DNA of 32,000 bases from Archaeoglobus fulgidus DSM 4304 (GCF_000008665.1 NC_000917.1:1050001-1082000), one strand, 5' to 3'; shown: positions 2,582 to 31,348, counted from the stretch's first letter. The notes: generated from the letters alone by a model not told the origin. Program-made: numbers and translations.

Positions 2582-3842
2582 GGTCTATCCAAACCCCTAC
2601 GGACTGGATGATGCCGAATACGTAAAGTTCCGCTGCAACTCCAGCTGTCTGCTTACGGACGGAGAGGGCTGGGTTGAAGCCGGGCCCGGAACGCATATCG
2701 CAGCTAAGAATCTCAGCTACTTCGAGGAGAGGTTTGGCTACAGGGCAGACGTTCAATTCTCCCCACAAATGGCCCTCTCCAACAGCGGAGAGGAGGTTTG
2801 CGTTGAGGACGCGGAGGGAAAGGACTGCTTTTACTACGGCAAGGACATTAAATTCCTCGATGATGGTGTAATCTACTACAGAACCGCCTCAGGCTGGGAT
2901 TTCCGCTACGAGGACTGGAGCAACTTTTCCTGCCTTACCGAGGTTGTTGAAGGTCAGCTTATCCTAACGCCGTCGGACTTCACCCTCGATGACGGGTGGG
3001 TTGTGGCTTCCTACACCTTCCACGCACCCTTCAGCCCTTCAAAGCTCTTCGTGGATGCGAGAACCGATAGACCTTGCAGGGAGTTCGAAACAGACACGGT
3101 TTTCCTCTCAGCCCCCTCATATCGAAACTTCCACTACAAGTTCGCCGTGAAGGGCGATAAGGTGGTAATCACAACCGAGAACTGGCAGTTCAGCAAGAGA
3201 GGCTTTGTAGTGCTGTTTGAAAATCACAACGTCTCGGAAATGCTCCAGAACCTTCTCAGGAACGATGAAAAGTACAGAACAAGCGTTTCAAAAACTTGCT
3301 CCAACTGGACTTACAGGAATGGTGCGGACGGTAGAACCTTGACCTTCAAAGCCCCAATCACGGTTTTTATCCTGCCCGACTGCAATCCTGTGCTAAAATT
3401 CATATCCTCCGCCAGAGAGAGGCTGCTAATAATAGCCCCCTACATCGACTTCAGGTGGTACAAGGATGACGGCCTTCTCGAGGCCATAAAGGGGGCAAAG
3501 GAGAGCGGAGCCGAGGTAAAGGTTGTTCTGAACGCAAAGTACGCTAAGGAGGAGGCTGTGAGCACTCTCAGAAAAGAAGGTGTGAAGGTTGAGCTTATCG
3601 ATAATCTCCATGGAAAGGCCATCGTTTCCGACAAAAGGCTGCTGATAACTTCCGCAAACATGAACATGCACGGCCTGAAGCTGAACAGGGAGATCGGGGT
3701 TATAATTAACAACCCCGAAATGGCGGATGCAGTTATAAAAGAGTTTGAAGGCGGTGAGGTAACACCCTTAGATTTGTTGTTAACCTTCGCAGCTTTTCTC
3801 GCCTCGGTTGCTATTTTCAGAAAAATGAAGGATAAGTTTTAA
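2538..3842 (+). CDS. Secreted/membrane-anchored phospholipase D (HKD) superfamily protein with an uncharacterised N-terminal domain
   Basis: There is an N-terminal signal-like [17 protein letters not shown] single HKD motif, [19 protein letters not shown], sits near the C-terminus. A C-terminal TM plus basic tail ([22 protein letters not shown]) follows. The gene overlaps the mptA 3' end by 44 nt. Confidence 0.7.
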
Positions 3843-3877
3843 TTATCACCTATGAGAAAATAAAGTGAGGTGTCAGA

Positions 3878-4513
3878 ATGGGATTGATGCTCGCCCTAAG
3901 GAAGAGATTCGGATTCATTCTGAAGCTGTTCTTCAAGAAAGACAAGATGAGGATAGGTATTTACGGCCCTCCAAATGCTGGCAAAACCACGCTTGCAAAC
4001 AGGATTCTGAGGGACTGGACGGGAGATGTCATCGGCTCGCCGAGCGATGTACCGCACGAGACAAGAAGGGCCAAGCTCAGGGAGGGTGTTAAGATAGAGG
4101 TTGACGGAAAGACGCTAACCATCGACATTGTCGACACGCCCGGACTTGCGACGAAGATAGACTTTCAGGAGTTCCTGAAATACGGACTGGATGAGGAGGA
4201 GGCGAGGAGAAGAGCGAAAGAGGCTACTGAGGGTGTTATTGAGGCCATAAAGTGGCTCGACGACCTCGATGGCGTGCTTCTCGTGATGGACGCGACAGAG
4301 GACCCCTTCACTCAGGTGAATGTGACCATAGTGGGCAACATGGAGGCCAGAAACCTACCGCTGCTCATAGTGGCGAACAAAATAGATTTGCCAAACGCCT
4401 CACCGGCGAGGATAAAGTCGGCCTTCCCGCAGCACCCCGTCGTGCCGATTTCGGCTTTGAAGGGCATCAATATAGACTCGTTGTATAAAGCAATGGCCGA
4501 GAGGTTCGGGTGA
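3878..4513 (+). CDS. Small GTP-binding protein (Era/EngB-like P-loop GTPase)
   Basis: GTPase motifs are present: G1 GPPNAGKT, G3 DTPG, G4 NKID, G5 SAL. The SD-like GTGAGGTG lies 6 nt upstream of the ATG. Confidence 0.85.
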   Translation: MGLMLALRKRFGFILKLFFKKDKMRIGIYGPPNAGKTTLANRILRDWTGDVIGSPSDVPHETRRAKLREGVKIEVDGKTLTIDIVDTPGLATKIDFQEFLKYGLDEEEARRRAKEATEGVIEAIKWLDDLDGVLLVMDATEDPFTQVNVTIVGNMEARNLPLLIVANKIDLPNASPARIKSAFPQHPVVPISALKGINIDSLYKAMAERFG

Positions 4514-17238: not shown

Positions 17239-18285
17239 TCACTTTATCTCAGAGAATGCCGGAATGATTCTCTCCGCATACACCTTCAGGACGTACTTGG
17301 GGTCGGGGCCGACGTTTATGAGCATGAAGTGCTTCACACCCGCCTTCACGAACTCCTCAATCTTTTCCTCGCAGTCCTCAGGAGTTCCAACGATGAAGAA
17401 GTCCCTTATCATCTCCTCGGTGACAAGGGATGAAAGCTTTACGAACTCCATAAGCATTTTGTCATCAAGAAGAAGTTGCTCGAAGTAGAATTTTTTTGAT
17501 ATGCCTTCCGGCATTTCGAGGCTGTATCCCGCCTGCTCCGCCTTTTCTGCCGCAGAAACAATCACACCGCTGAACTGCCTCGCCCTCTCCATTGCCCTCT
17601 CAAAAGATGTATCAACTGCGGTGTATATCTGCAACGCCGTGTCGATTTCATCAAGATTTCTTCCAGCCTTACTGCATCCGCGCTCAACGTCTTTTAGGTT
17701 CTCCCTGTACGTCTTCGGCGTTTCTGCAATGGGCATCCATCCGTCGCATATCTCTCCAGCGAGCTCTCTCGTTTTGACTCCATTTGCTCCGAGATAAATG
17801 GGAATCTTCTGTAGCGGCTTTATTTGAAGGAAGGCATCATCCAGCCTGAACCTTTTTCCCTCGTAGCTGAATCTATCTCCTGCCCACAGCCTCTTTATGA
17901 TCTCTATGCCCTCTCTCAGCGTCGTGTAGGGCTTTTTCCACTCTATGCCGAAGGGCTTTATGTTCATCGCCTCTCCTGCACCGAGCCCAAGGAAAGCCCT
18001 CCCATACGAGAGGTGGTCTATGGTGGCCATAATCTGAGCCAGAACGGAGGGATGGTAGCGAACAACATCGGTCACGCCCGTTCCCAGCATAGCCTTTGAA
18101 GTTTTGACTGCTAAAGCGGACAGCAGGGAAAGGGCGTTTGGCGTAAAGCCTGGGGGAACCATAAGAGTGTGGTCCGGCACCGTTAAAGAGAACATCCCGC
18201 TGTCCTCAGCCTGCTGGGCAATCTTAATAACCTTTTCAAGCGCGGGCATCGGAGGTGAGAGGAGCATGCCGAATCTGACGCTCAT
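17239..18285 (-). CDS. Luciferase-like (LLM) F420-dependent oxidoreductase, Mer-related
   Basis: The protein has the length of a TIM-barrel LLM family member, with Mer-like segments (FGMLLSP..., LGLGAGEAMN, GANGVKTRELAGEICDGW). The ATG at 18285 is preferred over the TTG at 18291. Confidence 0.8.
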   Translation of the reverse strand: MSVRFGMLLSPPMPALEKVIKIAQQAEDSGMFSLTVPDHTLMVPPGFTPNALSLLSALAVKTSKAMLGTGVTDVVRYHPSVLAQIMATIDHLSYGRAFLGLGAGEAMNIKPFGIEWKKPYTTLREGIEIIKRLWAGDRFSYEGKRFRLDDAFLQIKPLQKIPIYLGANGVKTRELAGEICDGWMPIAETPKTYRENLKDVERGCSKAGRNLDEIDTALQIYTAVDTSFERAMERARQFSGVIVSAAEKAEQAGYSLEMPEGISKKFYFEQLLLDDKMLMEFVKLSSLVTEEMIRDFFIVGTPEDCEEKIEEFVKAGVKHFMLINVGPDPKYVLKVYAERIIPAFSEIK

Positions 18286-18330
18286 AGCCAACAGGGAGAT
18301 TTCTCATTACTTATACTTTAACTATCTGTT

Positions 18331-18350: not shown

Positions 18351-19625
18351 TCAGACTCTCTCAACAACCATCGCCATTCCCTGCCCACCGCCGATGCAGA
18401 GAGAGGCCAGACCGTAGTCCACCCCTCTCCTCTCCATCTCGTAGATGAGCGTTGTTGTTATCCTCGCCCCTGTGCAGCCAATTGGGTGGCCGAGGGATAT
18501 ACCGCTGCCGTTGACGTTGACCTTTTCCATGTCCAGTCCAAGCTCCTTTATGCAGGCTAACGCCTGAGCTGCAAAGGCTTCATTGAGCTCAATCAGCCCT
18601 ATGTCCTTGATTTCAGGCCCAGCTTTCTTCAGAACCTTTCTTATGGCTGGTATAGGCCCAAGGCCCATGTATGCAGGGTCGATGCCCGCTGAAGCAACAG
18701 CAAGTATTCTGACTTTCGGCTCCAGCCCGTAGTCCTTCGCTGCCTTCTCGTCCATAACCAGAACGGCAGCGGCTCCATCATTAACCCCACTCGCATTTCC
18801 TGCAGTGACAGTTCCATCCTTCTTGAAGACAGGGGGTAGCTTCGCGAGCTTCTCAAGGCTCGTGTCCCTTCTTGGATGCTCGTCGGTGTCCACCACAACT
18901 GCTCCCTTCTTCTGCTTAACCTCCACCGGGACTATCTCCTGAGCGAACTTGCCCTCGTCAATGGCCCTTACAGCCCTCATGTGGCTCTCGTATGCAAGCT
19001 GGTCCTGCTCCTCTCTGCTTATGCCGTACCTCTCCACTATGTTTTCGGCTGTCATCCCCATGTGGTAGCCGTAGAACTTCTCCCAGAGGCCGTCGTAAAC
19101 CATGAGGTCCAGAATCTCGTCCTTGGCTGTGACGCTCATCCTGTATCCCCACCTCGCCTTTGGCAGGGCGTAGGGGGCGTTGCTCATGCTCTCCATCCCT
19201 CCTGCGATGATTGCCTTAGCGTCTCCAGCCTTTACGGCGTGGTAGGCGAGGGCGATGGCCTTCAAGCCGCTCCCGCAAACCTTGTTGACAGTGTAAGCGG
19301 GAATCTCCTTTGGTATTCCCGCAAGAATTGACGCCTGCCTCGCTGGATTCTGTCCCTGAGCTGCCTGCAAAACGTTTCCCATAATGACTTCGTCAATCTC
19401 CACCTCAACCCCATCGTAGTCGTAGGCCGACTCCAGATCAATTCTGCCCTTCTCCAGCTTCTCCGGGTAGAACTCAATGGATTCGGGAGTGGGCTTTGGT
19501 GCAACGCCCAGCTTTTTCAGCATTCCCTTAATCGCAACAGCCCCAAGCTCGTATGCAGCTACATCCTTCAAGCTGCCTCCAAATCTACCCACGGGGGTTC
19601 TTGCCGCTCCTACAATAACTGCCAT
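18351..19625 (-). CDS. Acetyl-CoA C-acetyltransferase (thiolase II type)
   Basis: [28 protein letters not shown] and CIGGGQG are present. GGAGGTG lies 5 nt upstream of the ATG. Confidence 0.92.
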
Positions 19626-19637
19626 AATACACCTCCT

Positions 19638-20415
19638 TCACTTTTTTCTTATTAAAATACCATCCGGGTCCAATTCTTTAAGTGTGTCGATTTCCTCTCT
19701 TGTTGGTGGTTCGGTGTACTCGACTTCCTCCGGGATGATAATTTCAAAAGAGCTGTTATTCAACACGTCCTCAACGTTACGTCCTTCATGAAGCGCTAAG
19801 AGCTTCATTCTCTTCGTTTGCTCATCAAAACCGTAAACACCAATCTGCGTTATCACCCTGTAGGGGCCAGTGCCTTCCGGAAGTCCAGAACTTTCTCTGC
19901 TACCGTCGAGGTATCCGGGAGTTGTAAGAAAGTCAAGCTTTTCCACGAACCTGAGCTTATCCTGTCTCATCAGAACAATGTTTCTCCAGGAAAGCGAGGC
20001 GACATCGTTTGCTCCACCACTTCCGGGAAGCCTAACCTTCGGTTTTTCCCAGTCCCCTATGACTGTTGTGTTGATGTTGCCATAGGGGTCAATCTGTGCT
20101 GCCCCAAGGGAATCCGTAATCCACGTACCCCATCTGTGCCAAGGACATGACGTAATCCATGCTCGATGCCATAACCGCTTTGTAAAATGTCGCACTCTCT
20201 CCAACAGAAATGGGAATTCTCGGCAGTTTTGGTGCGATTCCTCCTGCCTCAAACACCAGTACAAGGTTTGGTGCGTAAAGTCTCTGAGCAAGACACGCAG
20301 CCAGAACAGGCATTCCTGTCCCCACAAACACACTTTTTCGGTCTTCGAGAATTCTTGCGGCGACACAAACCATGTACTCGGTATCAGAATACTCCACCAA
20401 GATTATCACCTCCAC
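19638..20415 (-). pseudogene. Family I CoA-transferase subunit B (glutaconate/3-oxoacid type), frame broken by an apparent 1-nt insertion at about 20105-20112
   Basis: ORF 20089..20415 encodes the N-terminal half, including the catalytic-Glu region LVFEAGG, and ends ...MGYVDYGFPWGSTD*. The conserved continuation LGAAQIDPYGNINTTVIG...PGSGGANDVA lies in another frame (ORF 19638..20366). The minus strand reads GGATTCCCTTGGGG, and removing one C restores YGFLGAAQID. Confidence 0.75.
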
Positions 20416-21422
20416 GGGTAAACAGGGCGCTCCCTGAGCTGCTCAATCCTTCTGAGTTTTTCGAGCCTCTTAGAACCACCGACAACTTCGAGGTACTCCC
20501 AGAAATCGTTGACTCCATAAACGTACTTTTCAAAGTACTCCTTGGCTCCCTCCTCCGTTCTCGTCAATGCAAGATACTCGGCAATGTGCTCCTCGTCAAA
20601 GTAGTAGAGCAAAGGCATATTACAGGGATGGGACGCAAAGGGCTGCTCTACAACGGCATCCACAAGGAAGTAGGGGATGGAGGTTCTCCACGGACTCTCC
20701 CTGATTTTGTCCGTCGGGACTATCTCCTCGGTTGTGACTATCAGCCTCTTCGCTGCCCTCGCAAGCTCGTAGTCTTCAACAAGGATTCCATCAATCTGAG
20801 CATTTCCGTATTTGTCGGCACGGTGAACGTGTATTATGGCCACATCGGGGAAGCAGGCCGGAATCAAGGTGACGGGCTTTCCGCTGTATGGGTCTCTGAT
20901 GATTTTGGCAGAACTCTTTTTGAACGTGTCCGTTCCCATCAAAATCCTTGCTGGAATGAAGGGAAGACCCATTGCCGCTGCTTTGAACCTCCATTGCAAA
21001 GCTGCGTTGCTCCACTCGGTGATAACCTTTACCTCCCCACCCTCAACCTTCCTTCTCGAAGCGGGCGACAGCCCCCTCAGCTCGTGGCCAAAGCTGTATG
21101 CAGCCTCAACCTTTTCAACGCAGCCGGCAGCCATCAGCACATCGAGGTCGTGCACCGAGGTCTTTCCCGCCATCGTAAGTCCCTTTACTCCCTGCCTGAT
21201 GATTTCATAAATGATGTTCATGGAAACCCTTACATGCCCGAATCCCCCGCTGGCGACGTACATGCCATCTTTGATGAAGTTCGAAACCGCCTCTTCTGCG
21301 GACATCGTCTTGTCAGCCATCTCTCTGCTCTTGTTGTCCCTCACCCACTCCCGGAACTCGTCAGGGTCACACCAGCCAACGAGGGGGCCTTCGCCTTCAT
21401 CCATAATTTCCAGAGGTTCCAT
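20406..21422 (-). CDS. Family I CoA-transferase subunit A (glutaconate/3-oxoacid CoA-transferase-like)
   Basis: The gene begins MEPLEIMDEGEG... after GGAGGTG, and SGGFG is present. The 109-aa N-terminal extension in the ORF track overlaps the cyclase gene and is Arg/Gly-rich nonsense. Confidence 0.8.
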   Translation of the reverse strand: MEPLEIMDEGEGPLVGWCDPDEFREWVRDNKSREMADKTMSAEEAVSNFIKDGMYVASGGFGHVRVSMNIIYEIIRQGVKGLTMAGKTSVHDLDVLMAAGCVEKVEAAYSFGHELRGLSPASRRKVEGGEVKVITEWSNAALQWRFKAAAMGLPFIPARILMGTDTFKKSSAKIIRDPYSGKPVTLIPACFPDVAIIHVHRADKYGNAQIDGILVEDYELARAAKRLIVTTEEIVPTDKIRESPWRTSIPYFLVDAVVEQPFASHPCNMPLLYYFDEEHIAEYLALTRTEEGAKEYFEKYVYGVNDFWEYLEVVGGSKRLEKLRRIEQLRERPVYPWR

Positions 21423-21472: not shown

Positions 21473-22345
21473 TTACCTCTTTTCGACAAGGGCGACGAGT
21501 CTGACTATTGAGCCATCTCCCTTGACCCACCTTATCGGCAGGCCGATTATCGTGCACCTCTGCCCTGTGACCTTGTCGATGTCCCCTCCTACATTCTCCC
21601 ATCCCATTATTCCGTGTGTAAGGAGCAGCCTGTGGCACGGCTCCCAGTAAGGGAAGTCCTCGCTGACATCTCTGCCCGTCAGCTGCTTGTACTCCTCCTT
21701 CAGCCACGGTAGAATTGAGTTTCTCTCGTCTGCACCGGGGTGGTGCCATGCTTCTCTCGTTGCAAGGGGGTGGTCGAGAGCCTGAGTGTCAATTCCCACG
21801 GCCTTAACCTTCTTTTTAACGAACCACTCACCTGCCTCCTTGTAAAATCCGGGCGCGTAGCAGAAGTACTTGACGCTGTCGCTCCAGTACCTGTGCCAGC
21901 CTGTGTTAACGATAACGATGTCTCCCTTCTCTATTGGAGGGTCGGCCTTCTCCAGATCCTCGGCGGTTATTACCTCCCACTTCTTTTTGGGAATCGAGAC
22001 CACAACACCCTCTCCCATGTACCTCTCTATCGGAACCTCGTCAATCGATGGAAATCCCTCCTCAACGTGTATCGGTGCGTCAGCATGCGTTGAAACGTGC
22101 ATGGTCGTCGTGATTATCTGGGAAAGAACTCTTGACTTGGCGTGGTAGTGGTAGCGGTCGATAATTACATCGTTGAAGTACGGCCACAGCGGCACACCGT
22201 AACCAAAGGGATTTGACAGGTCGTACACCTCAACTTCCTTTCCCAGAATCTTCAGCGCCGGCTTTTCCAGAATGTCCTCCGGATTCCCAATCAGCTCAGG
22301 GTCGAGCATTCCGTGAAGGTACGGAGAATCTGCTTCGTCCACCAT
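21473..22345 (-). CDS. Putative-cyclase family metal hydrolase (kynurenine formamidase / isatin hydrolase-type fold)
   Basis: HVSTHADAPIH fits the family signature HxxTHxDxPxH. GAGGTGAT lies 5 nt upstream of the ATG. Confidence 0.8.
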   Translation of the reverse strand: MVDEADSPYLHGMLDPELIGNPEDILEKPALKILGKEVEVYDLSNPFGYGVPLWPYFNDVIIDRYHYHAKSRVLSQIITTTMHVSTHADAPIHVEEGFPSIDEVPIERYMGEGVVVSIPKKKWEVITAEDLEKADPPIEKGDIVIVNTGWHRYWSDSVKYFCYAPGFYKEAGEWFVKKKVKAVGIDTQALDHPLATREAWHHPGADERNSILPWLKEEYKQLTGRDVSEDFPYWEPCHRLLLTHGIMGWENVGGDIDKVTGQRCTIIGLPIRWVKGDGSIVRLVALVEKR

Positions 22346-22386
22346 TCACCATCACCTCAAATGGACTTTCTGTAGAAACTTATTAA

Positions 22387-22532: not shown

Positions 22533-23102
22533 ATGAAAAATATGAAGACTAAGATGGTCAGGCTTGGCACATACGTTTCACAGGACGCATACAAACTCCT
22601 CAGAGAGCTGACAGAGCTTTACGGAAACCAGAGCAACGTCCTTGACCAGGCTATAAGGCTTCTCTACGACGTATCAAAGTATGGCTCAAAAGCTGACAGG
22701 ATTTTAATACGGGAGAAGCTAATTAACGAGTTCGAGAACATACTGATTTCCAAAAAGAATTTCATGCACCTTCTTGAAGGAAAAAAGGAGGGTCTGTTTG
22801 ACGAAGACGTTATAACAGCAGTAATACTGAGTTTTGTTGACGAGAGCATGGATTCCAAAAGCTTTTTCCCGAAGATGATGGATGCCCTAAAGAAGATTTA
22901 CGTCGAGGGGAACAGGTGGTTCACGAACATTGAGTACAAGGAGACTGAGAGCGGTTACAAGGTGACCTTCTACCACAACCTGAACAGCGAGTTCAGCGAC
23001 TTTGCATCCGAGTACTTCAGGAGATTTTTCAAAATAGGATATAAAATAGTTGAGGAGCAGAAGCTGAACAAGCTCTTCATCCTTCAGGTTTCCGAGTTTT
23101 AG
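22533..23102 (+). CDS. Hypothetical protein with a ribbon-helix-helix-like N-terminus; candidate cluster regulator
   Basis: MVRLGTYVSQDAYKLLRELTELYGNQSNVLDQAIRLLY has a strand-helix-helix pattern. The gene is AT-richer than its neighbours and is the only plus-strand gene in the cluster. The start could be 22533, 22542 or 22554; the track start at 22416 is unlikely. Confidence 0.45.
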   Translation: MKNMKTKMVRLGTYVSQDAYKLLRELTELYGNQSNVLDQAIRLLYDVSKYGSKADRILIREKLINEFENILISKKNFMHLLEGKKEGLFDEDVITAVILSFVDESMDSKSFFPKMMDALKKIYVEGNRWFTNIEYKETESGYKVTFYHNLNSEFSDFASEYFRRFFKIGYKIVEEQKLNKLFILQVSEF

Positions 23103-23574
23103 ATTTCTTCTTCAAATCCTCCACCGATTTGACCTGAAGACACTGAGCAACGCAGGCTGAAACGCAGGCGGGTTTTTTACCTTCCTCAATGCGCGGCATG
23201 CAGAGGTCGTAGATTCTGACTTTTCCATCATCGCCCAGCTGCGGCGCTCCGAATGGGCACACCTCCATGCAAATTTTGCAGCCTATGCACAAATCCAGGT
23301 CCAAGACCGTCATTCCATCCTCGCTTTTCCTCAGCGCACCAGTCGGGCACTCATCCACGCACGGGGCACTCAGGCAGTGCCTGCAAACGACGACTTTGAA
23401 GTGCTGCTGTACCTTCTCACCCGTAATCCTTGGTCCATCGTGGAAAACTCTGATTCTTCCGGGGTCGTCGAAGTTCTCGGAGCTGTGCTCGACCTTGCAT
23501 GCTATTACGCAGGCATAGCAGCCAATGCATTTCCTGCGGTCGTGAACGAAGGTCAGTTTTGACAATTCACTCAC
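23077..23574 (-). CDS. Four-cluster [4Fe-4S] ferredoxin-type subunit of a molybdopterin oxidoreductase (DmsB/PsrB-like)
   Basis: Four cluster motifs are present: CIGCYACVIAC, CRHCLSAPCVDECP, CIGCKICMEVCP and CMPR...CVSACVAQC. The GTG start at 23574 overlaps the stop of the catalytic subunit (GTGAGTGA). An alternative ATG lies at 23628. Confidence 0.85.
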   Translation of the reverse strand: MSELSKLTFVHDRRKCIGCYACVIACKVEHSSENFDDPGRIRVFHDGPRITGEKVQQHFKVVVCRHCLSAPCVDECPTGALRKSEDGMTVLDLDLCIGCKICMEVCPFGAPQLGDDGKVRIYDLCMPRIEEGKKPACVSACVAQCLQVKSVEDLKKKSKTRKPEG

Positions 23575-25687
23575 CCCCGTCGCATCTGTAAATCCTGCAA
23601 AGCATAGCCCTGAAGGTCGTGGAGCCAATGCAGGGGTCGAAGGGAGGTTTGTTGCTCGTCAGAACGTTGGCGTTGCTCTCGAAAATACCGAGGTCGGGTT
23701 TTTCCGGATAGTACCATGAAGCCTGAGCGAACACGTAGCGAGGATTCATAGCCTCAAAAAGCCTCGCCCTCTGCCTTATCCTTCCACGCGGGGTCTCAAT
23801 CCATATCCAGTCTCCGTCCTTTATTCCATATTTCTCAGCAGTTTCTGGATGTATCAGGGCTACTGGGTCGGGCTGCAGCTCTCTTAACCACGGATTCTGG
23901 CGGTACTGGGAGTGGAAGTAGTACGGCACCCTCCCGCCTGTGGAGAGTATCAGCGGATACTTCTCGCTCAGCTCCGGCGTGCTGTAGGGGCTTTCATTCG
24001 GCTCCCGGTAGTGGGGAAGCGGGTCGTAGTTGAGGTTTTCGAGGATGGTTGAGTAAAGCTCTATTTTGCCGGTCGGTGTTGGAAATCCTCCTCCCTCCCT
24101 CCAGTAGTTGGTTTTGTACTTGTAGTAGTGCTCCTTTCCGGTTCTTGCCAGCACGCCGATTTCCTTGAACTCCTCCCATGTAATCCCCGCCTTCCTGAGC
24201 TGGTAGTTCAGCATTTCGTAAACGTCGCTGAACCAGTACTTCGGTGCAAGCCTCTTGCCGAGTTCGTTGAATATCACGTTGTCGGGCAGAGCTTCCCCAA
24301 CAGGTTCAACCGCCCTGACTATCGCCGAGACGAAGAATCTGGGGTGCATGTCGTAAATATCGTCGGTTTCGAGCCAGTGTGCCGCTGGGAGAACGATGTC
24401 GGCATACTTTGCCGTCGGTGACATGTAGAGGTCAACAACCGAGATGAACTCCACGTTGAGCAATGCCTTGAGCACGTCTTTCGAGTTGGCGTAGGCCAGC
24501 ACGGGATTCGTTCCCTGAAGGTGCATCATTTTTATTCTTCTCTCCCCATTGAGCAGGTCCTCACAAACGCTCTCGAAGTGGCACATTGCGAAGGGCGGAA
24601 GGGCGAGAAGTTTGTACCTGTCAGCGCCGATGGGCAGCTCTTCAGGTGGCGGAACCTCTAAGGCGAACTCCTCCATCTCCCCTGTTTCTGGAGGCACCCA
24701 GTTCACCATTCCGCCAGGCCTCTCTATGTTGCCGGTTACCGCCATCAGACAGATTATTGCTCTGAGAGTTTGAATGGAGTTGTTTCCCGCTTCCAGAGCC
24801 TGACCTATCTGTATGCAGCCCGGTCTTGATGTTGCGAACCACTCCGCGGCGAGCTTTATCTTATCCTCGGGCACCCACGTGATTCTGCTCACCTTGTCAG
24901 GGCTGTACTCTTCAACTCTCTCCCTCAGCCTGTCGAAGCCGTGAGTCCACTGCTCCACGAAGTCTTTGTCGTAGAGCTCCTCGCTGATGATGACGTTGAG
25001 CATACCCAACGCGAGCGCAGCGTCAGTCCCCGGCCTTACGGGCAGCCAGAGGTCCGCTCTGTGTGCAACGGGAGTTGCCTTCGGGTCAACGAGGATGAAG
25101 TGCTCTGCCTCCTCCAGAGCCCTCAAAAACCAGACCGCCATCTCGCCGTCGGCGTTGGTGTACTCAAGCTGCTTTCCCCAGTGGACTATGGTTTTGGGGT
25201 ACTCCCCACCCCATCCGTGGTAGTCGCAGTACAGCCTGCCACCGACGGTAATGCCAAAGGCTGCGAGCCTTGGAGCATAGCAGAAATGTGCAGGCAGGAG
25301 GACGTTTGGCGATCCTATCGACCTCGCAAATCTGAACGTGTAGCGGTTGTAGCCTCTCCCTGTTCCCTGACCGATTAAAATTGAGGAGGGGCCGTACTCC
25401 TCGATGTATTCCTTCATTTTTTCCGCTATCGTATCCAGAGCCTCCTTCCAGCTTATTCTTTTCCACTCTCCCTCTCCTCTCTCGCCAACTCTCTTCAGCG
25501 GATATTTGAGCCTCGAAGGGTTGTAAACCTCCTTGATGCTCGCCAGTCCCTTTGGACACATCGTTCCTCTGGTAAGCGAGCTGGGATCACCCTCTATGTG
25601 CACTATTTTCCCTGACTTTACCTTAACGAGCACCCTGCATCCGCCGTGACAGCTCTTGCAGGTAGTTTTTACGACATGCTCGGACAT
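23567..25687 (-). CDS. Mo/W-bis(pyranopterin guanine dinucleotide) oxidoreductase catalytic subunit, no Tat signal
   Basis: The gene starts MSEHVVKTTCKSCHGGC...C(PKG), an N-terminal FS0 cluster motif, after GAGGTG. A DMSO-reductase-family body of about 706 aa follows. The candidate Mo ligand region is LLPAHFCYAPR. No RR motif or hydrophobic signal was seen. Confidence 0.85.
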   Translation of the reverse strand: MSEHVVKTTCKSCHGGCRVLVKVKSGKIVHIEGDPSSLTRGTMCPKGLASIKEVYNPSRLKYPLKRVGERGEGEWKRISWKEALDTIAEKMKEYIEEYGPSSILIGQGTGRGYNRYTFRFARSIGSPNVLLPAHFCYAPRLAAFGITVGGRLYCDYHGWGGEYPKTIVHWGKQLEYTNADGEMAVWFLRALEEAEHFILVDPKATPVAHRADLWLPVRPGTDAALALGMLNVIISEELYDKDFVEQWTHGFDRLRERVEEYSPDKVSRITWVPEDKIKLAAEWFATSRPGCIQIGQALEAGNNSIQTLRAIICLMAVTGNIERPGGMVNWVPPETGEMEEFALEVPPPEELPIGADRYKLLALPPFAMCHFESVCEDLLNGERRIKMMHLQGTNPVLAYANSKDVLKALLNVEFISVVDLYMSPTAKYADIVLPAAHWLETDDIYDMHPRFFVSAIVRAVEPVGEALPDNVIFNELGKRLAPKYWFSDVYEMLNYQLRKAGITWEEFKEIGVLARTGKEHYYKYKTNYWREGGGFPTPTGKIELYSTILENLNYDPLPHYREPNESPYSTPELSEKYPLILSTGGRVPYYFHSQYRQNPWLRELQPDPVALIHPETAEKYGIKDGDWIWIETPRGRIRQRARLFEAMNPRYVFAQASWYYPEKPDLGIFESNANVLTSNKPPFDPCIGSTTFRAMLCRIYRCDGGE

Positions 25688-25716: not shown

Positions 25717-25824
25717 TTACTTTCTTCTTCTGGCTCCGTAAAATCCGAAGCCAAAATAAATGAACATGAGGGCGATTATCAGCGCCATCCACGTCACGGT
25801 TCCGACTTCAAGCATCATCTTCAT
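25717..25824 (-). CDS. Unannotated mini-ORF, 35 aa, single TM with a basic tail
   Basis: My own translation gives MKMMLEVGTVTWMALIIALMFIYFGFGFYGARRRK*. GAGGGTGA lies upstream of the internal ATGs. It overlaps the preceding mini-ORF by 17 nt in another frame and ends 29 nt before the Mo-enzyme ATG. Confidence 0.4.
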   Translation of the reverse strand: MKMMLEVGTVTWMALIIALMFIYFGFGFYGARRRK

Positions 25825-25936: not shown

Positions 25937-27397
25937 TCACCCCCTCACAGCCAAAGCTTTTTCTCTGAAGAGTCCCGGCTTCCCTGGCAGAACCGCGTTT
26001 AGCAGTGAGCCGATCACCAGAGTAACTATGAGAGCGAGATAGACCTGATGCAGCCAACCCGGAGCTCCGAGAACTTCTGGCAGTGGAGTCATCGTCCATG
26101 CGTTTATGGTCACCCAAACCAGCAAGCACGTGATAATCGCCGCTGGGGCGGACCTCTTCCAGAAGAGCCCGAATATGACGAACCAGAACACTGGGACGAG
26201 CCATGAGAACAACCACATCATGGCGGCGAGTATTGGTGGGAGGCTCACAGCAGGAATCAGCGCGGCAACAGCGAGCAGAACGGTAAGAATTCTGGAGAGC
26301 CGGAGAAGCTCCTCATGCGAGGCATTCGGCTTGAGAACGGCCTTGTAAATGTCGTTAACGAATATCGTTGTGGGGGCGAGAAGTGTGATGGCGTAGGATG
26401 ACAGCACAGCAACAAGACAGGTTGCAAGAAGCAGTGCCGACGCCCATGTTGGCAGAACCGACACAATCATTGCGGGTGTAGCAGTCTTCGCACCGAGCTC
26501 GGCAAATTCCGGTGTTGCCCTTGCAGCCATTCCCATAACTGCGGCAAACACGGCAAAGGATCCGTTCACAGGCACGGCAATGAGCATAGCTTTTCTAAGC
26601 ACATCCGGAGATTTTGCTGCCAGTGCCGCATGCAGTCCCTGCTGGCTGATTCCCTGGAAAAACACCGTTGCGAGCACGTTCACGAGAGCAAAGCCGACGA
26701 AAACCTCCCATGATCCGAATATGTTGAGTTTGCCCGCCAAATCGTTGGAGATGTAGAACTCGTTAACGCCCTCCCATCCGTTCTGCAGCCCTGAGCCGAG
26801 AACGAAGGTTGCGGCAATGATGCCTATGTAAAGAATAACCGCGTTGAGAACGTTGAGCCATGCAACCTCTTTCATGCCCGAAAGGACGACGTAAAGAATT
26901 CCTATCAGCGCTCCAATCACTATCCCCACTTCTATAGAAGTTCCGGTGAGAATTGAGACGAAAACACCGAGTCCCTGTGTTTCAAGGGTGCAGATTCCGA
27001 AAATGGCTCCGGCTATGACAGCACCGACCATCAGCCTCAACCAGTAGTTGCTGAAAATGACGTCAAGAAACTCTGGAACGGACTCCACTTTGAGCTTTCT
27101 CGCCCATCTTCCAGTAAAAAGACATACAATTGCCAGCATTATTGCGTGTGCGAAGGAAAACCAGACCGCGGGCAATCCGATGTCATATGCCGACTCCATA
27201 ACTCCCAGTATGTGGGGAGTTCCAAGCACCGTAAGGGCGAGGGTAACACCAACTGGAACCGCACCCAGACCCCTTTTCGCAACCAGATAGTCCTCTTCGG
27301 ATTTTTCCATCCTTTTCATCAGGTAGAATCCAACACCAAGGGTTGTCACCAGGAAATACACCAAAACGGGTATCAGTATATCCCATCTTGCCTCCAA
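25937..27397 (-). CDS. Sodium:solute symporter (SSS) family transporter
   Basis: The protein is a 486-aa polytopic membrane protein. An N-terminal TM1 is followed by EEDYLVAKRGLG, typical of SSS/PutP-PanF-like carriers. The TTG start lies 6 nt after GGAGGTGG. Confidence 0.85.
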   Translation of the reverse strand: MEARWDILIPVLVYFLVTTLGVGFYLMKRMEKSEEDYLVAKRGLGAVPVGVTLALTVLGTPHILGVMESAYDIGLPAVWFSFAHAIMLAIVCLFTGRWARKLKVESVPEFLDVIFSNYWLRLMVGAVIAGAIFGICTLETQGLGVFVSILTGTSIEVGIVIGALIGILYVVLSGMKEVAWLNVLNAVILYIGIIAATFVLGSGLQNGWEGVNEFYISNDLAGKLNIFGSWEVFVGFALVNVLATVFFQGISQQGLHAALAAKSPDVLRKAMLIAVPVNGSFAVFAAVMGMAARATPEFAELGAKTATPAMIVSVLPTWASALLLATCLVAVLSSYAITLLAPTTIFVNDIYKAVLKPNASHEELLRLSRILTVLLAVAALIPAVSLPPILAAMMWLFSWLVPVFWFVIFGLFWKRSAPAAIITCLLVWVTINAWTMTPLPEVLGAPGWLHQVYLALIVTLVIGSLLNAVLPGKPGLFREKALAVRG

Positions 27398-27414: not shown

Positions 27415-28362
27415 TTAACCATCCTCCAAAATCAATTTGAGAATCTTCGCCAGCTGATCATCTCTCCACTTCGCAAGCTCATCGTATGACATTCTTTTGA
27501 TGATATCGTACCCCTCCATTGATTTGAGTATGGCGTCAAATGAGCCTTCCGGATACTCCGACCAGTTCGCCAGATCAGACCACAGTCGCCTGTAGTGGTC
27601 ATCGAAGAATTCGAGGAAGTACTTCATCCCGCCCTGACCACCACCGAGATGGTAGGTGAGGTAAACCCCAGTAATCGCCCATCTGATTCCCGGACCGTAT
27701 TTAACTGCCACATCTATCTCCTCAGGTGTGGCTATTCCCTGATAAACGAGGTTCACCGCCTCCCTCCACAGTGCTGCAGCAAGTCTGTTCGCCACCATTC
27801 CCGGAACGTCCTTCTTTACGACGATGGGCTTCTTGCCCATTCTCTCCATGAATTCAACTGTTTTCTCTGTGCAGCTTTCGTCCGTCTGCTTTCTCGGAAC
27901 GACCTCAACAAGCGGAATGAGGTGGGGCGGATTGTACGGATGGGCGGTAATGCACCTCTCGGGATGCTTTCTGGCAGCGGTCTGAATTTCTGATATGCTC
28001 AGACCTGATGTGCTCGTGGCGAGAATCGTTTCCGGTTCTGCAATTGCATCCATCTTTTCAAAAAGGTCTCTCTTAACTTCCAGCTTTTCCACCGCCGACT
28101 CCTGAACGTAGTATGCCCCTTTCAGTGCCTCTTCGAGGTTTTCAGTGAATTTAACTCTGCTCAGGGCGCTTTTCACGTCATCCTCACTACCAGAAAAAAT
28201 TTCACTGAGAGTTGAAACTGTGCGAGCGATGCTCGCTTCTGCCCTATTCAGAGCCTCAGGAAACGGGTCGTAAACCGCAACGTCACAACCACGCCAAGCA
28301 AAAAGTGACGCCCAGCTTGCGCCAACTGTTCCGGCGCCAATGCAGGCAACCTTTACGCCCAC
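27415..28362 (-). CDS. 3-hydroxyacyl dehydrogenase family, L-carnitine dehydrogenase / lambda-crystallin (free 3-hydroxy-acid) branch
   Basis: CIGAGTVGASWASLFAWRGCDV resembles the GxGxxGxxWA signature of LcdH/CRYL1-type enzymes, and HPYNPPHLIPLVEV is present. The GTG start follows GGAGGGG and overlaps the SDR 3' end by 10 nt. Confidence 0.75.
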   Translation of the reverse strand: MGVKVACIGAGTVGASWASLFAWRGCDVAVYDPFPEALNRAEASIARTVSTLSEIFSGSEDDVKSALSRVKFTENLEEALKGAYYVQESAVEKLEVKRDLFEKMDAIAEPETILATSTSGLSISEIQTAARKHPERCITAHPYNPPHLIPLVEVVPRKQTDESCTEKTVEFMERMGKKPIVVKKDVPGMVANRLAAALWREAVNLVYQGIATPEEIDVAVKYGPGIRWAITGVYLTYHLGGGQGGMKYFLEFFDDHYRRLWSDLANWSEYPEGSFDAILKSMEGYDIIKRMSYDELAKWRDDQLAKILKLILEDG

Positions 28363-29208: not shown

Positions 29209-29553
29209 TCACGCCTTGGGGTAGCTCGCAATTACAAGCATTGTTGCCGGCATGTTCGTCTCGTTTACCAGGTACCTCGACTCGCCCGGCGGAATGTACA
29301 GGGAGTCCATCGGCCCCAGCTCAATTTTCTCCCCGCCTTCCTTCACTACGGTCATCTTTCCGCTCAGCACTATGTACACCTTCTCAATGTCGCTCTTGTC
29401 CCAGTCTGCACCTCCTCCGGGGAGAAAATGAGACAGACCAACCCAGAAGTTCTCAGAGCCTGTGGTTTCCTTGTGATGCAGCCTCAAAGCAACCATGTTA
29501 AAATGGCCCGGCGCCTCGTATGGTTTCACATCATCTATGCAGACCTTCTTCAT
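29209..29553 (-). CDS. Small cupin-fold protein
   Basis: The 114-aa protein has a beta-barrel pattern (...FLPGGGADWDKSDIEKVYIVLSGKMTV...ELGPMDSLYIPPGE...). No canonical HxH metal motif was seen. Confidence 0.65.
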   Translation of the reverse strand: MKKVCIDDVKPYEAPGHFNMVALRLHHKETTGSENFWVGLSHFLPGGGADWDKSDIEKVYIVLSGKMTVVKEGGEKIELGPMDSLYIPPGESRYLVNETNMPATMLVIASYPKA

Positions 29554-29718: not shown

Positions 29719-30360
29719 TTAGCGAAATGAAATTCCAAGTTCTCCAGTTTTGTTCCTTTTCATCACGTTGAGTATAAGCGGCGTCAGGGATTCCACCAGA
29801 TGAGCGTTTGAAAGCCCGCCAGCATCCAGGGCTCTCAGCCCCGAAATTTTCTCAGTAAGGTCAACAACCACCTCTTTTGCACCGCTGTCACCGCAAATCG
29901 GGACGTCCCACTCGAACTCTTCGCCAAGATTTGCGAACCTCCTTGCGGGAATCGAGTGGTATGCTGCAACTACGCTGCTTTCTTCCAGTACTGACGCAAG
30001 CTTCTCTGCTGCCGAGCCCTCCTCAGGTCTGACGTAAACGAAGTTATCGCCGACTTTTTTCATAGGCACCAGCGGTGAGATTACCACCTTCCCCGCCAGC
30101 TGCCTTTTCAGCATTTCCGCTGTGTCAAAGGCGAACTCCCACGGAATCGTGAATACAGCAACATCGCAGGTTTCTGCGGCATCCTCATTTCGCATTCCTA
30201 TTATGGATGCATCGCCGACCTTTTTCAGGTAATCCGATGCCAGTTTCTCAGCCTTTTCAAGCTTTCTTGAGCCAACTATGATTTCGTAGCCCAGCTTGCC
30301 CCATCGCAGAGCCAGACCTTCCCCAAGGTTGCCCGTACCTCCAAGAAGGGCGATTTTCAT
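29719..30360 (-). CDS. NADPH-dependent F420 reductase (NpdG/Fno family)
   Basis: MKIALLGGTGNLGEGLALRWGKLGYEIIVGSR is the Fno/NpdG N-terminal signature. The length is 213 aa. Confidence 0.85.
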   Translation of the reverse strand: MKIALLGGTGNLGEGLALRWGKLGYEIIVGSRKLEKAEKLASDYLKKVGDASIIGMRNEDAAETCDVAVFTIPWEFAFDTAEMLKRQLAGKVVISPLVPMKKVGDNFVYVRPEEGSAAEKLASVLEESSVVAAYHSIPARRFANLGEEFEWDVPICGDSGAKEVVVDLTEKISGLRALDAGGLSNAHLVESLTPLILNVMKRNKTGELGISFR

Positions 30361-30376
30361 TGCACCACCAAAAAAG

Positions 30377-31318
30377 TTAGAAGTTTACCCTTTCCTTTCC
30401 CTTAAGTCCGAGTATCTCCCTCACCTCGTCAGGTGTTGCGGGCCTCTTTCCGAGTTCCTTCACAATCCTTACCATTTTTTCGACCTGCTCGGCGTTGCTT
30501 TTAGCAAGCTTGCCTCTTTCAATGTAAAGGCTGTCCTCAAGCCCCACTCTCACGTCACCGCCCATTATCACCGCAAGCGTTCCGAGAGGCATCTGAAATC
30601 TGCCCGCTCCAACAAGGGACCACGTGTAGTTCTCCCTGCCAATTAACCTGTCTGCCGTCTGCTTCATGAACAGAACATCCTCAACAGCGGTTCCAATTCC
30701 GCCGAGTATCCCATGGATGAACTGCAGCCTGAGTGGCGGTTCGAGGTAGCCCTCGTGGAACATGAAGGCCGTGTTGTATATCTGCCCTATGTCGTAGCAC
30801 TCAAGCTCCGGCTTCGTGTCGTTCTCCTTGAAAATTCTCGAAAGCGCCTCAAGGTCCTTGAACGTGTTTCTGAAAACTATGTCCCTCGTCATTTCGAGAT
30901 ACTCGGGCTCCCAGTCGTACTTGAACTCCTTGTACTTTTTGAGTAGTGGATGAATGGCGAAGTTCATGGAGCCCATGTTGAAGGTTGCGATTTCCGGTTT
31001 CAGGGCGGGCACGACCTTTGCCCTCTCCTCAACGGGTATTCCCAGTGTGCCTCCTCCTCCGGTTGTAACATTAATAACAACATCGCTCTGCTTTTTGATT
31101 TCCCTGCATATGTACCTGAAAACCTCAACATCCGTTGTGGGGCGCCCGTCTTTCGGGTCTCTCGCGTGAATGTGAACCATTCCGGCCCCTGCCTCTGCGG
31201 CCTTCACCGCTTCCTCCACAATCTGGTCGGGTGTGACCGGCAGGTACGGGGACATGCTCGGAGTGTGTATCGCTCCCGTTATGGCGCACGTGACAATAAC
31301 CACATCGTCCTTCCTCAT
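30377..31318 (-). CDS. Beta-keto acid cleavage enzyme (BKACE/DUF849; 3-keto-5-aminohexanoate cleavage enzyme family)
   Basis: VIVTCAITGA, the Zn-site-like MVHIHARDP and a TIM-barrel length of 313 aa support the call. Confidence 0.85.
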   Translation of the reverse strand: MRKDDVVIVTCAITGAIHTPSMSPYLPVTPDQIVEEAVKAAEAGAGMVHIHARDPKDGRPTTDVEVFRYICREIKKQSDVVINVTTGGGGTLGIPVEERAKVVPALKPEIATFNMGSMNFAIHPLLKKYKEFKYDWEPEYLEMTRDIVFRNTFKDLEALSRIFKENDTKPELECYDIGQIYNTAFMFHEGYLEPPLRLQFIHGILGGIGTAVEDVLFMKQTADRLIGRENYTWSLVGAGRFQMPLGTLAVIMGGDVRVGLEDSLYIERGKLAKSNAEQVEKMVRIVKELGKRPATPDEVREILGLKGKERVNF

Positions 31319-31336
31319 GTCACAGATAGGATTTAA

Positions 31337-31348
31337 CTTATTATATTT
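31337..31348 (-). promoter_or_regulatory. Candidate TATA (AAATATAATAAG) for the BKACE-F420 reductase unit
   Basis: It is centred about 24 nt upstream of the ATG at 31318. Confidence 0.4.

Follow-up and report, generated by a model that had tools for sequence, protein, structure and literature searches.

The 32,000-nt stretch of the Archaeoglobus fulgidus DSM 4304 genome analyzed here (hereafter the window, with coordinates counted from its start) carries on its minus strand a gene pair known in the A. fulgidus literature as AF1202/AF1203 (PMC3949148, PMC4543118). The pair encodes a 706-amino-acid catalytic subunit of the molybdenum or tungsten (Mo/W) bis-pyranopterin guanine dinucleotide (bisPGD) type, here referred to as alpha, and a ferredoxin-like iron-sulfur (FeS) subunit of about 162 amino acids, here referred to as beta. 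Our results place alpha-beta, with high confidence, in the clade of acetylene hydratase (AH) and the catechol dehydroxylases, as a cytoplasmic enzyme that is itself neither an AH nor a formate dehydrogenase (FDH), a Psr/Phs-type reductase or a Pelobacter-type transhydroxylase. As judged from the sequences, it has the soluble two-subunit architecture of the Gordonibacter-type enzymes, with Mo- or W-bisPGD as the predicted cofactor. The AF1202/AF1203 family is an environmentally widespread variant of the recently recognized catechol dehydroxylase/AH class and not categorically new. A functional tie of alpha-beta to the catabolism of phloroglucinol or other polyphenols is probable; more tentatively, we propose that the pair may be a Gordonibacter-type cytoplasmic polyphenol (de)hydroxylase, an accessory module feeding phloroglucinol to the pathway encoded around it. 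A near-identical copy of alpha is present in A. fulgidus DSM 8774.

Sequence and family placement of the catalytic subunit

The alpha open reading frame (ORF) runs on the minus strand from an ATG at 25687 to a stop codon at 23567, and a Shine-Dalgarno sequence (GAGGTG) is located 5 to 6 nt 5′ of this ATG. Three Pfam domains, Molybdop_Fe4S4 (PF04879, E value of 1e-14), Molybdopterin (PF00384, 5e-48) and Molydop_binding (PF01568, 4e-27), all scored well over their gathering scores, which establishes membership in the Mo/W-bisPGD (DMSO-reductase or MopB) superfamily, and all top Foldseek matches to the AF2 model of alpha (pLDDT of 82.5, pTM of 0.88) were bisPGD enzymes. As the first-pass annotation of this DNA had stated, the protein begins directly with a CxxCxxxC…C cluster motif (MSEHVVKTTC10-KS-C13-HGG-C17 … C44), and C10, C13, C17 and C44, together with Lys46, are invariant among the 37 orthologues that we compared. 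The sole in-frame upstream extension, from a GTG at 25792, would add 35 amino acids; it contains neither a twin-arginine motif nor an h-region and shares sequence with a distinct small ORF that is read in a different frame. One database version of alpha uses the extended 741-amino-acid form, which is probably over-extended because the separate 35-amino-acid small ORF occupies the overlapped region. In every orthologue the start lies 5 to 10 residues ahead of the first cluster Cys, and no real twin-arginine translocation (Tat) motif was found among the 188 homologues collected, in agreement with the leaderless protein described earlier.

A search of the PDB with the alpha sequence returned AH (2e7z, 380 bits) ahead of FdhF (240 bits) and Psr/Phs (236 bits). 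The fold search with the AF2 model again ranked AH 2e7z on top (E value of 1e-52, TM-score of 0.86), with FdhF/FdhH as the second-best structural relatives. The Pelobacter transhydroxylase 4v4c was absent from the PDB sequence matches of alpha and occupied rank 28 in the fold search. Among the curated NCBIfam models, PhsA ranked first with 323 bits against a cut-off of 694; the FDH alpha model TIGR01591 gave 322 against 666 and DmsA 276 against 778. For each of these models and the rest, alpha remained below half of the cut-off. The periplasmic polysulfide, thiosulfate or DMSO reductase against which the first-pass annotation had argued was rejected because of the missing Tat signal, the missing membrane anchor described below and the sub-threshold hidden Markov model scores.

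Alpha shares 37% identity with AH. The Cys of the HFCYAPR motif, singled out at first pass as the candidate metal ligand, is Cys136; it aligns with the W-ligand Cys141 of AH and is invariant in the 37 orthologues, which makes it the predicted, candidate metal ligand of alpha. Asp13 of AH is described as confined to the AH subfamily and essential there, the D13A variant being inactive (PMC12096430). The corresponding position in alpha, next to the second cluster Cys, is His14, which is invariant in the family. Furthermore, Trp179 of AH aligns with Ala179 of alpha, Trp472 lies in an AH-specific insertion that has no counterpart, and Ile14, Ile113 and Ile142 of AH align with Gly, Gly and Tyr. The acetylene pocket of AH is reportedly composed of hydrophobic residues together with Trp179 and Trp472. 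The alpha family in turn carries a conserved insert, LYCDYHGWGGEYP, that is extra relative to AH. That alpha is a true AH was rejected because of the replacement of Asp13, Trp179 and Trp472.

The Mo-dependent catechol dehydroxylases were discovered in Gordonibacter and other Eggerthellaceae and constitute the sister group of AH in the literature. Alpha is approximately 35 to 39% identical to Gordonibacter/Eggerthellaceae homologues and has in common with them His14, Gly110/Arg111, Cys136, an aromatic residue or His at position 137, Arg140 and Asp155, whereas AH has Asp, Ile/Asn, Cys, Ile, Thr and Ser at the same positions. In a neighbor-joining tree, AH fell outside the most recent common ancestor of alpha and the Gordonibacter sp. 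28C enzyme in 80 of 100 bootstraps.

Architecture of the alpha-beta pair

Beta contains 16 Cys residues in four groups (CxxCxxCxxxC; CxxCx4CxxxCP; CxxCxxCxxxCP; Cx12CxxxCxxxC) and is thus the four-cluster subunit noted at first pass, in an interval (23077 to 25687) that spans beta and alpha exactly. It matches Pfam Fer4_11, its NCBIfam match to DmsB (117 bits) falls under the cut-off, and its best PDB match is PsrB (2vpw_B, 84 bits). The start codon of beta is uncertain, being either a TTG at 23565 or a GTG at 23574, and it abuts or overlaps the alpha stop codon. In 23 of 28 related loci, the beta gene immediately follows alpha. No NrfD/DmsC-type anchor gene was found in the window, where the sole multi-transmembrane protein is a symporter of the sodium:solute symporter (SSF) family, and none was found in the 28 non-redundant loci encoding close orthologues.

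In the literature, the Gordonibacter-type enzymes are defined by two cytoplasmic subunits, with a smaller Tat-less catalytic subunit, an FeS partner and often an adjacent transporter. Alpha-beta, with two predicted cytoplasmic subunits and neither a Tat signal nor an anchor, corresponds to this layout. The characterized representatives (Dodh, Cldh, Gp Hcdh and Eadh1/2, bis-molybdopterin guanine dinucleotide enzymes of gut Coriobacteriia) probably belong to the same superclade as alpha, next to AH; the shared signature residues named above were seen in the Gordonibacter/Eggerthellaceae homologues. Features in common with alpha-beta are the lack of a Tat signal, a catalytic subunit of approximately 700 amino acids, adjacent FeS-protein and transporter genes and a predicted cytoplasmic location. 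There are also differences. The FeS partner of Gordonibacter sp. 28C has 111 amino acids, whereas the four-cluster beta of A. fulgidus has about 162; alpha keeps all four cluster Cys residues, whereas Coriobacteriia homologues are often without the first. Finally, alpha belongs to a separate clade with 60 to 80% internal identity that extends over archaea and several bacterial phyla, and alpha-beta is encoded in a phloroglucinol catabolic operon and not in a respiratory or biotransformation context.

Collectively, these data bear out the direction of the first-pass annotation, which had named hydroxylases, hydratases and transhydroxylases as analogues, and at the same time show it to be incomplete: AH is indeed the nearest solved relative, but a hydratase role is unlikely given the replaced residues, and the closest functional class, the Gordonibacter-type catechol dehydroxylases, was not on the list.

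Conserved linkage to the phloroglucinol pathway

The neighbors of alpha-beta, earlier described as dehydrogenases and a solute symporter rather than respiratory genes, are indeed catabolic, and no respiratory module was found among the genes of the 32-kb window. They are not generic, however, but constitute the published anaerobic phloroglucinol pathway. This pathway was described in 2023 in Clostridium scatologenes and comprises a short-chain dehydrogenase/reductase (SDR) acting as phloroglucinol reductase (PGR), a cyclase-family dihydrophloroglucinol cyclohydrolase (DPGC), a 3HCDH-family enzyme (TfD) and a BKACE enzyme (triacetate acetoacetate-lyase, TAL), together with a thiolase and a CoA-transferase (PMC10470551). 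The same study reported a phloroglucinol cluster in Archaeoglobus, and its supplement lists among the DPGC homologues a 290-amino-acid entry from A. fulgidus DSM 8774 and the DSM 4304 entry O29068. The cyclase ORF of the window has the same length, 290 amino acids. The SDR, cyclase, 3HCDH and BKACE families are all found within a span of 10 kb, TAL being assigned by an equivalog cut-off and PGR, DPGC and TfD by family and context only. The molybdoenzyme was not discussed in the published work (PMC10470551), and our literature search found no paper connecting the subfamily of this Mo enzyme with that gene cluster.

Every gene of interest lies in two minus-strand rows. Row 1, from 31318 down to 23077, consists of TAL, NpdG, cupin, SDR, 3HCDH, SSF symporter, a 35-amino-acid small ORF, alpha and beta; row 2, from 22345 down to 17239, consists of the cyclase, CoA-transferase A and B, thiolase and a luciferase-like oxidoreductase; a plus-strand ORF of 189 amino acids (22533 to 23102) lies between them. 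The remaining genes of the window encode beta-oxidation-type proteins, an ADP-forming acetyl-CoA synthetase, replication factor C and housekeeping functions. The features are as follows.

23567 to 25687, minus strand: alpha, 706-amino-acid Mo/W-bisPGD catalytic subunit (Pfam, NCBIfam, PDB match 2e7z, AF2 model with Foldseek, invariant residues, start codon with Shine-Dalgarno sequence)
23077 to 23565 (or 23574), minus strand: beta, ferredoxin-like subunit of about 162 amino acids with four [4Fe-4S] motifs (Cys groups, Pfam Fer4_11)
25717 to 25824, minus strand: hydrophobic 35-amino-acid small ORF between symporter and alpha (read from the sequence)
25937 to 27397, minus strand: sodium:solute symporter, SSF family (Pfam SSF, E value of 3e-28)
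27415 to 28362, minus strand: 3HCDH-family protein, TfD candidate, (S)-3-hydroxy-5-oxohexanoate dehydrogenase (Pfam 3HCDH_N/3HCDH; family definition from PMC10470551)
28353 to 29198, minus strand: SDR, PGR candidate (Pfam adh_short_C2, E value of 9e-67; family level and context only)
29209 to 29553, minus strand: 114-amino-acid cupin (Pfam Cupin_2)
29719 to 30360, minus strand: NpdG, NADPH-dependent F420 reductase (TIGR01915, 229 bits, above the cut-off of 149.8)
30377 to 31318, minus strand: TAL, BKACE enzyme, 3,5-dioxohexanoate:acetyl-CoA acetone transferase (equivalog NF053538, 452 bits, above the cut-off of 430)
21473 to 22345, minus strand: DPGC, cyclase family (Pfam Cyclase; supplement of PMC10470551)
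19638 to 21422, minus strand: CoA-transferase A (20406 to 21422) and B (19638 to 20415), presumed to activate acetoacetate (Pfam CoA_trans)
18351 to 19625, minus strand: thiolase, acetoacetyl-CoA to two acetyl-CoA (typical thiolase translation; role according to PMC10470551)
17239 to 18291, minus strand: luciferase-like oxidoreductase (member of row 2)
22533 to 23102, plus strand: 189-amino-acid ORF without known family, convergent on beta (42% identity to an ORF of locus L081; no Pfam match)

To follow this linkage beyond A. fulgidus, we collected 168 homologue loci (designated L with a number) and searched them with the window proteins; orthologues with at least 61% identity to alpha are here referred to as subfamily A. 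Well over a hundred cluster representatives in the protein database share 60 to 80% identity with alpha, and they stem from Archaeoglobi, Bathyarchaeia, Promethearchaeota, Chloroflexota, Deltaproteobacteria, Spirochaetia and Bacillota. DPGC is encoded in 9 of the 31 subfamily A loci, compared with 1 of the 133 loci of more distant clades (Fisher p = 9e-7). The DPGC identity in nine related loci is 40 to 81%, and TfD is co-located in seven related loci. Most of the DPGC-bearing loci also carry SDR, TfD, TAL and cupin genes in a single operon that ends with alpha-beta; this order (DPGC-cupin-TAL-SDR-TfD-alpha-beta) was seen in L090, L096, L156/L166, L108/L109 and L081, and alpha adjoins DPGC and cupin in L082, L086, L092 and L097. 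Other subfamily A members adjoin genes for phloretin/2,4-diacetylphloroglucinol hydrolase, an old yellow enzyme (OYE)-type enoate reductase and SnoaL, a flavonoid-type context that also ends in phloroglucinol, and some adjoin an acetoacetate-CoA ligase gene. A transporter gene almost always adjoins alpha-beta, SSF in the window and TRAP, Tct or LivK-type ABC elsewhere. In a Desulfobacterales clade with 44 to 48% identity, no conserved neighbors past alpha-beta were found, so that its gene context was uninformative.

Electron-transfer partners and co-occurring transhydroxylases

In 10 of the 28 subfamily A loci (L086-L093, L097 and L101; for example, L087 at 3122-4405), alpha or beta is abutted by a gene for a Pyr_redox_2 flavoprotein of 406 to 427 amino acids, whose closest resemblance is to the NADH-binding phenylglyoxylate dehydrogenase subunit PadH. 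In the sister clade, subfamily B (54 to 60% identity; L004, L114, L122, L136 and 42 others), alpha is encoded in a beta′-NrfD-alpha module with a beta′ of approximately 240 amino acids, again with no Tat signal on alpha, and we predict a membrane-bound, quinone-linked complex that faces the cytoplasm. The first-pass annotation had named an anchor gene conserved elsewhere as evidence that would speak against its reading; such a gene was found in this sister clade only and not in the clade of alpha itself. The flavoprotein and NrfD partners point to net electron transfer to or from the active site and not to a purely hydrolytic or isomerizing role. As a separate observation, the neighbors of subfamily B often include carboxylesterase, thiamine diphosphate-dependent enzyme and zinc alcohol dehydrogenase genes, and sometimes transhydroxylase-like genes.

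In L109 (metagenome contig Ga0114921_10000401, 1643-12200), one operon encodes a Pelobacter-type transhydroxylase alpha/beta (914 bits to 4v4c), DPGC, RidA, cupin, TfD, TAL, SDR and an AH-like alpha/beta whose alpha is 63% identical to that of the window; a third, truncated AH-like gene lies upstream. In the wider clade, too, transhydroxylase-like genes adjoin several members, one of them at the Gordonibacter sp. 28C locus. There (L038, 9899-16275), a Tat-less catechol dehydroxylase-like gene and the gene of the 111-amino-acid FeS protein are immediately followed by a transhydroxylase-like pair of 896 and 272 amino acids, so that such pairs of Mo enzymes are found outside environmental loci as well. 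Together with L109, this co-occurrence makes the two enzyme types look complementary rather than redundant. That alpha is an orthologue of the Pelobacter transhydroxylase, which the first-pass annotation had already doubted, was rejected on the basis of the sequence search, the fold rank and the coexistence of both enzymes in L109.

Proposed function and alternative explanations

The reading that we favor, tentatively, is that of a polyphenol (de)hydroxylase; from the comparisons above we infer its redox direction, substrate and electron donor as follows. The adjacent symporter would import a polyhydroxylated aromatic compound, and the substrate would most likely contain a ring of the pyrogallol or 1,2,3,5-tetrahydroxybenzene type, either as such or as part of a polyphenol or aromatic acid. 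It may bind at the Cys136-ligated metal center, which would be lined by His14, Arg111, Tyr137, Arg140 and Asp155, and this center would strip a ring hydroxyl in a two-electron oxygen-atom-transfer reaction, the chemistry of the catechol dehydroxylases. Electrons would pass via the four [4Fe-4S] clusters of beta and the cluster of alpha from a soluble donor, possibly the PadH-like NAD(P)H flavoprotein in about one third of the related loci and a carrier (ferredoxin?) in A. fulgidus. The product, phloroglucinol or a precursor of it, would then be converted to acetyl-CoA via PGR, DPGC, TfD, TAL, CoA-transferase and thiolase.

Several points weigh against this reading. Few natural sources of 1,2,3,5-tetrahydroxybenzene are known, and the dehydroxylation of pyrogallol or gallate alone gives no phloroglucinol. 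The literature contained no report of A. fulgidus using such aromatic compounds. About one in two of the informative orthologue loci (L103, L084 and L104 among them) showed no phloroglucinol gene in the flank at hand. The TRAP, Tct and LivK-type transporters of related loci hint at a carboxylated substrate, and no decarboxylase of the kind that such a substrate needs was identified in the window. The best PDB matches of the SDR are gluconate-5-dehydrogenase-like SDRs, its assignment as PGR being by family and context only. A tblastn search found no homologue of the flavoprotein in the window, and three orthologues (L156/L166, L168 and L103) are without beta. The tree, finally, was built by neighbor-joining only, from 71 representatives rooted on a transhydroxylase-like sequence, and represented the catechol dehydroxylases by Gordonibacter/Eggerthellaceae homologues rather than by characterized enzymes included by name.

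Among the alternatives, the one that survives best is a redox-neutral transhydroxylase or isomerase that forms phloroglucinol from pyrogallol or hydroxyhydroquinone, an analogue of the Pelobacter enzyme that evolved independently within the Cys-ligand AH clade; we consider it unlikely, though a serious candidate. Beta, with the flavoprotein where there is one, would then serve solely to set or restore the redox state of the metal center, or as an electron store linking a hydroxylating half-reaction to a dehydroxylating one. A conversion of this type is just what the operon context requires, and the classical degraders of gallate and pyrogallol rely on it. The transhydroxylase of Pelobacter acidigallici (AthL/BthL, 4V4C) is a Mo-bisPGD enzyme that resembles alpha-beta in its cytoplasmic location, its FeS beta subunit and the lack of an anchor. 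Its reaction feeds directly into this phloroglucinol pathway, and the removal and addition of hydroxyls on polyhydroxybenzenes is the chemistry that the context calls for. The FeS beta subunit is reportedly present in the Pelobacter enzyme even though its reaction is net non-redox, and the three orthologues without beta fit the same view. AH itself needs reduction to W(IV) for activity (PMC12096430). AthL/BthL belongs to the Ser-ligand branch of the DMSO reductases, whereas alpha has a Cys ligand; AthL has 875 amino acids and no FeS cluster, compared with the 706 amino acids and FeS motif of alpha; and BthL has 274 amino acids, three clusters and an Ig-like domain, whereas beta has no extra domain. 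Against this alternative, L109 has a true Pelobacter-type enzyme beside a 63%-identical member of the alpha family, and the two are probably not redundant; transhydroxylase-like genes also adjoin other wider-clade members; and the repeated presence of the NAD(P)H flavoprotein, like the NrfD of the sister clade, argues for net electron flow.

A role in the opposite redox direction appears quite unlikely. An oxidative, water-dependent hydroxylase would convert pyrogallol to 1,2,3,5-tetrahydroxybenzene or resorcinol to phloroglucinol, with the electrons leaving via beta to NAD(P)+, ferredoxin or quinone. Mo-dependent phenol hydroxylases exist, resorcinol hydroxylase being an example, the flavoprotein and NrfD modules could equally accept electrons, and the co-occurrence in L109 would be sensible if alpha-beta made the co-substrate of the canonical transhydroxylase. 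However, the phenol hydroxylases and transhydroxylases known so far fall into the Ser-ligand clade, whereas alpha belongs to the Cys-ligand AH/dehydroxylase clade, in which the characterized redox members are all reductive.

We regard as improbable a catechol dehydroxylase that acts on the non-phloroglucinol half of flavonoids (3,4-dihydroxyphenyl-acetate or -propionate) or uses catechols as an electron sink. The characterized Gordonibacter enzymes Dodh and Hcdh do act on such acids, several orthologues lie beside enoate reductase, SnoaL and phloretin hydrolase genes, and TRAP and LivK-type transporters suit carboxylates. This explanation is opposed by the operons of A. fulgidus, L081, L090, L096, L156 and L108/L109, which combine phloroglucinol genes with alpha-beta only and include no flavonoid-cleaving genes.

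Very improbable, in our view, is an AH-style hydratase that hydrates acetylene, or the keto tautomer of resorcinol to dihydrophloroglucinol, even though AH is the closest solved structure, of similar size, with an N-terminal [4Fe-4S] cluster and a Cys ligand and also cytoplasmic (Pelobacter (Syntrophotalea) acetylenicus, 2E7Z), and even though DPGC, the consumer of dihydrophloroglucinol, is the most frequent neighbor. The essential Asp13 has given way to an invariant His, and Trp179 and Trp472 are without counterparts. Furthermore, AH is a monomer that works without an electron-transfer partner, whereas the beta gene stands beside alpha, and the beta, flavoprotein and NrfD partners point to electron transfer. 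The dehydration of dihydrophloroglucinol to resorcinol is the favored direction, and PGR would be superfluous in such a scheme.

A respiratory polysulfide, thiosulfate, tetrathionate or DMSO-type reductase is suggested by the top NCBIfam rank of PhsA, the likeness of beta to PsrB and DmsB, the Cys-ligand bisPGD alpha with an N-terminal cluster in PsrABC/PhsABC and the respiration of sulfur oxyanions by A. fulgidus, but is scarcely credible given PhsA, DmsA and DmsB scores far under the family cut-offs (less than half of the cut-off for alpha), the lack of a Tat leader, the lack of a PsrC/NrfD anchor in the window and the 28 orthologous loci, the ranking of AH above Psr by both sequence and fold and the catabolic genomic context.

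The label of a cytoplasmic FDH is equally hard to sustain. Transcriptome papers tentatively assigned AF1202/AF1203 to this function or grouped the pair with thiosulfate/polysulfide reductases (PMC3949148, PMC4543118). A. fulgidus oxidizes formate, alpha matches TIGR01591 in part (322 bits), and FdhH/FdhF, the second-best structural relatives, are cytoplasmic bisPGD enzymes with a Cys or Sec ligand, an N-terminal cluster and a polyferredoxin-type partner. The TIGR01591 score is nevertheless far under the cut-off, the catalytic His next to the Cys/Sec ligand is replaced by Tyr137, and an alignment to FdhF showed no PLRGQNNVQG arginine motif, the Arg of RGQNNVQG included; with both signature residues missing and so low a score, the label was rejected. 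In addition, the literature transcriptomes showed no differential expression under conditions where an FDH would be expected, and the gene is embedded in an aromatic-catabolic operon kept across phyla.

Other features of the locus

The 114-amino-acid cupin lies outside the published four-enzyme pathway and travels with the phloroglucinol genes across archaea and bacteria. Its homologues (42 to 84% identity) in eight related loci (L081, L089, L090, L092, L096, L097, L108/L109 and L156) are always found beside the PGR/DPGC/TfD/TAL genes, and its nearest NCBIfam model, a mycobacterial cupin named beta-D-galactosidase, gave 80 bits against a cut-off of 175. The cupin may be a fifth pathway component. 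A RidA-family protein recurs in four loci. The cluster of the window also encodes NpdG and the luciferase-like, possibly F420-dependent oxidoreductase, which suggests an archaeal adaptation tying the NADPH-requiring reductase step to the F420 pool; NpdG likely joins this pool to NADPH for PGR. The luciferase-like oxidoreductase (17239-18291) was rejected as a conserved pathway member, being only 30% identical to its L090 counterpart. The UbiD decarboxylase of L081, considered as a gallate decarboxylase, turned out to be the menaquinone decarboxylase of the futalosine pathway (TIGR03701, 642 bits).

The CoA-transferase B gene is split over two frames, with the N-terminal part at 20089-20415 and the C-terminal part from approximately 20100 down to 19638. 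The frameshift lies near 20100-20107, where one extra base in ggattcccttggggc interrupts …GYVDYGF|LGAAQIDPYGN…; it marks a pseudogene, stems from an error in sequencing or is programmed. The 35-amino-acid small ORF upstream of alpha encodes a hydrophobic product, MKMMLEVGTVTWMALIIALMFIYFGFGFYGARRRK, and has its own Shine-Dalgarno-like GAGGGTG; it had no family match, and it may, as an unproven suggestion, be an accessory peptide of the symporter. The 3′ end of the 189-amino-acid ORF overlaps that of beta by 26 nt. This ORF is 42% identical to an ORF in L081 (4462-5043, on a related Archaeoglobi-like contig) directly upstream of the cupin-SDR-3HCDH-alpha-beta operon, and its product is a candidate cluster-specific regulator. 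Finally, the 9-mer AACTTATTA occurs only twice in the 32 kb (0.14 copies expected), at 22377-22385 and 31335-31343. Both copies lie 17 to 40 nt upstream of the starts of minus-strand operons (DPGC and TAL), a pattern picked post hoc, and may represent a shared promoter or operator element.

Implications

These results correct the standing annotation of AF1202/AF1203, which figures in energy-metabolism models as an "unknown cytoplasmic formate dehydrogenase" or as a putative sulfur-oxyanion reductase. Since the sequence signatures and the conserved context speak against both labels, the formate oxidation of A. fulgidus remains unassigned. Our data extend the catechol dehydroxylase/AH clade, characterized so far only in gut Coriobacteriia, to an environmental subfamily with clear limits and a physical link to the phloroglucinol pathway. 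A bolder view, to which we give only a small chance, is that the subfamily represents a second, independently evolved route from pyrogallol or a tetrahydroxy-phenol to phloroglucinol, in which a Cys-ligated Mo/W enzyme of the AH clade with an electron buffer (the four-cluster beta, with or without the NAD(P)H flavoprotein) would replace the tetrahydroxybenzene co-substrate of the Pelobacter enzyme. If this were true, the second route would work at approximately 80 °C in a sulfate-reducing archaeon, would be widespread in sediment Bathyarchaeia, Chloroflexota and Desulfobacterota, and would provide a missing link from tannin and flavonoid carbon to anaerobic mineralization, archaea included. 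The candidate substrates are few, and the enzyme is a hyperthermophilic one from a cultivable archaeon. In all, the AF1202/AF1203 family points to an unrecognized upstream step in the anaerobic breakdown of tannin- and flavonoid-derived phenols and bears on the "enzyme latch" question, that is, on the persistence of polyphenols in anoxic sediments and peat.

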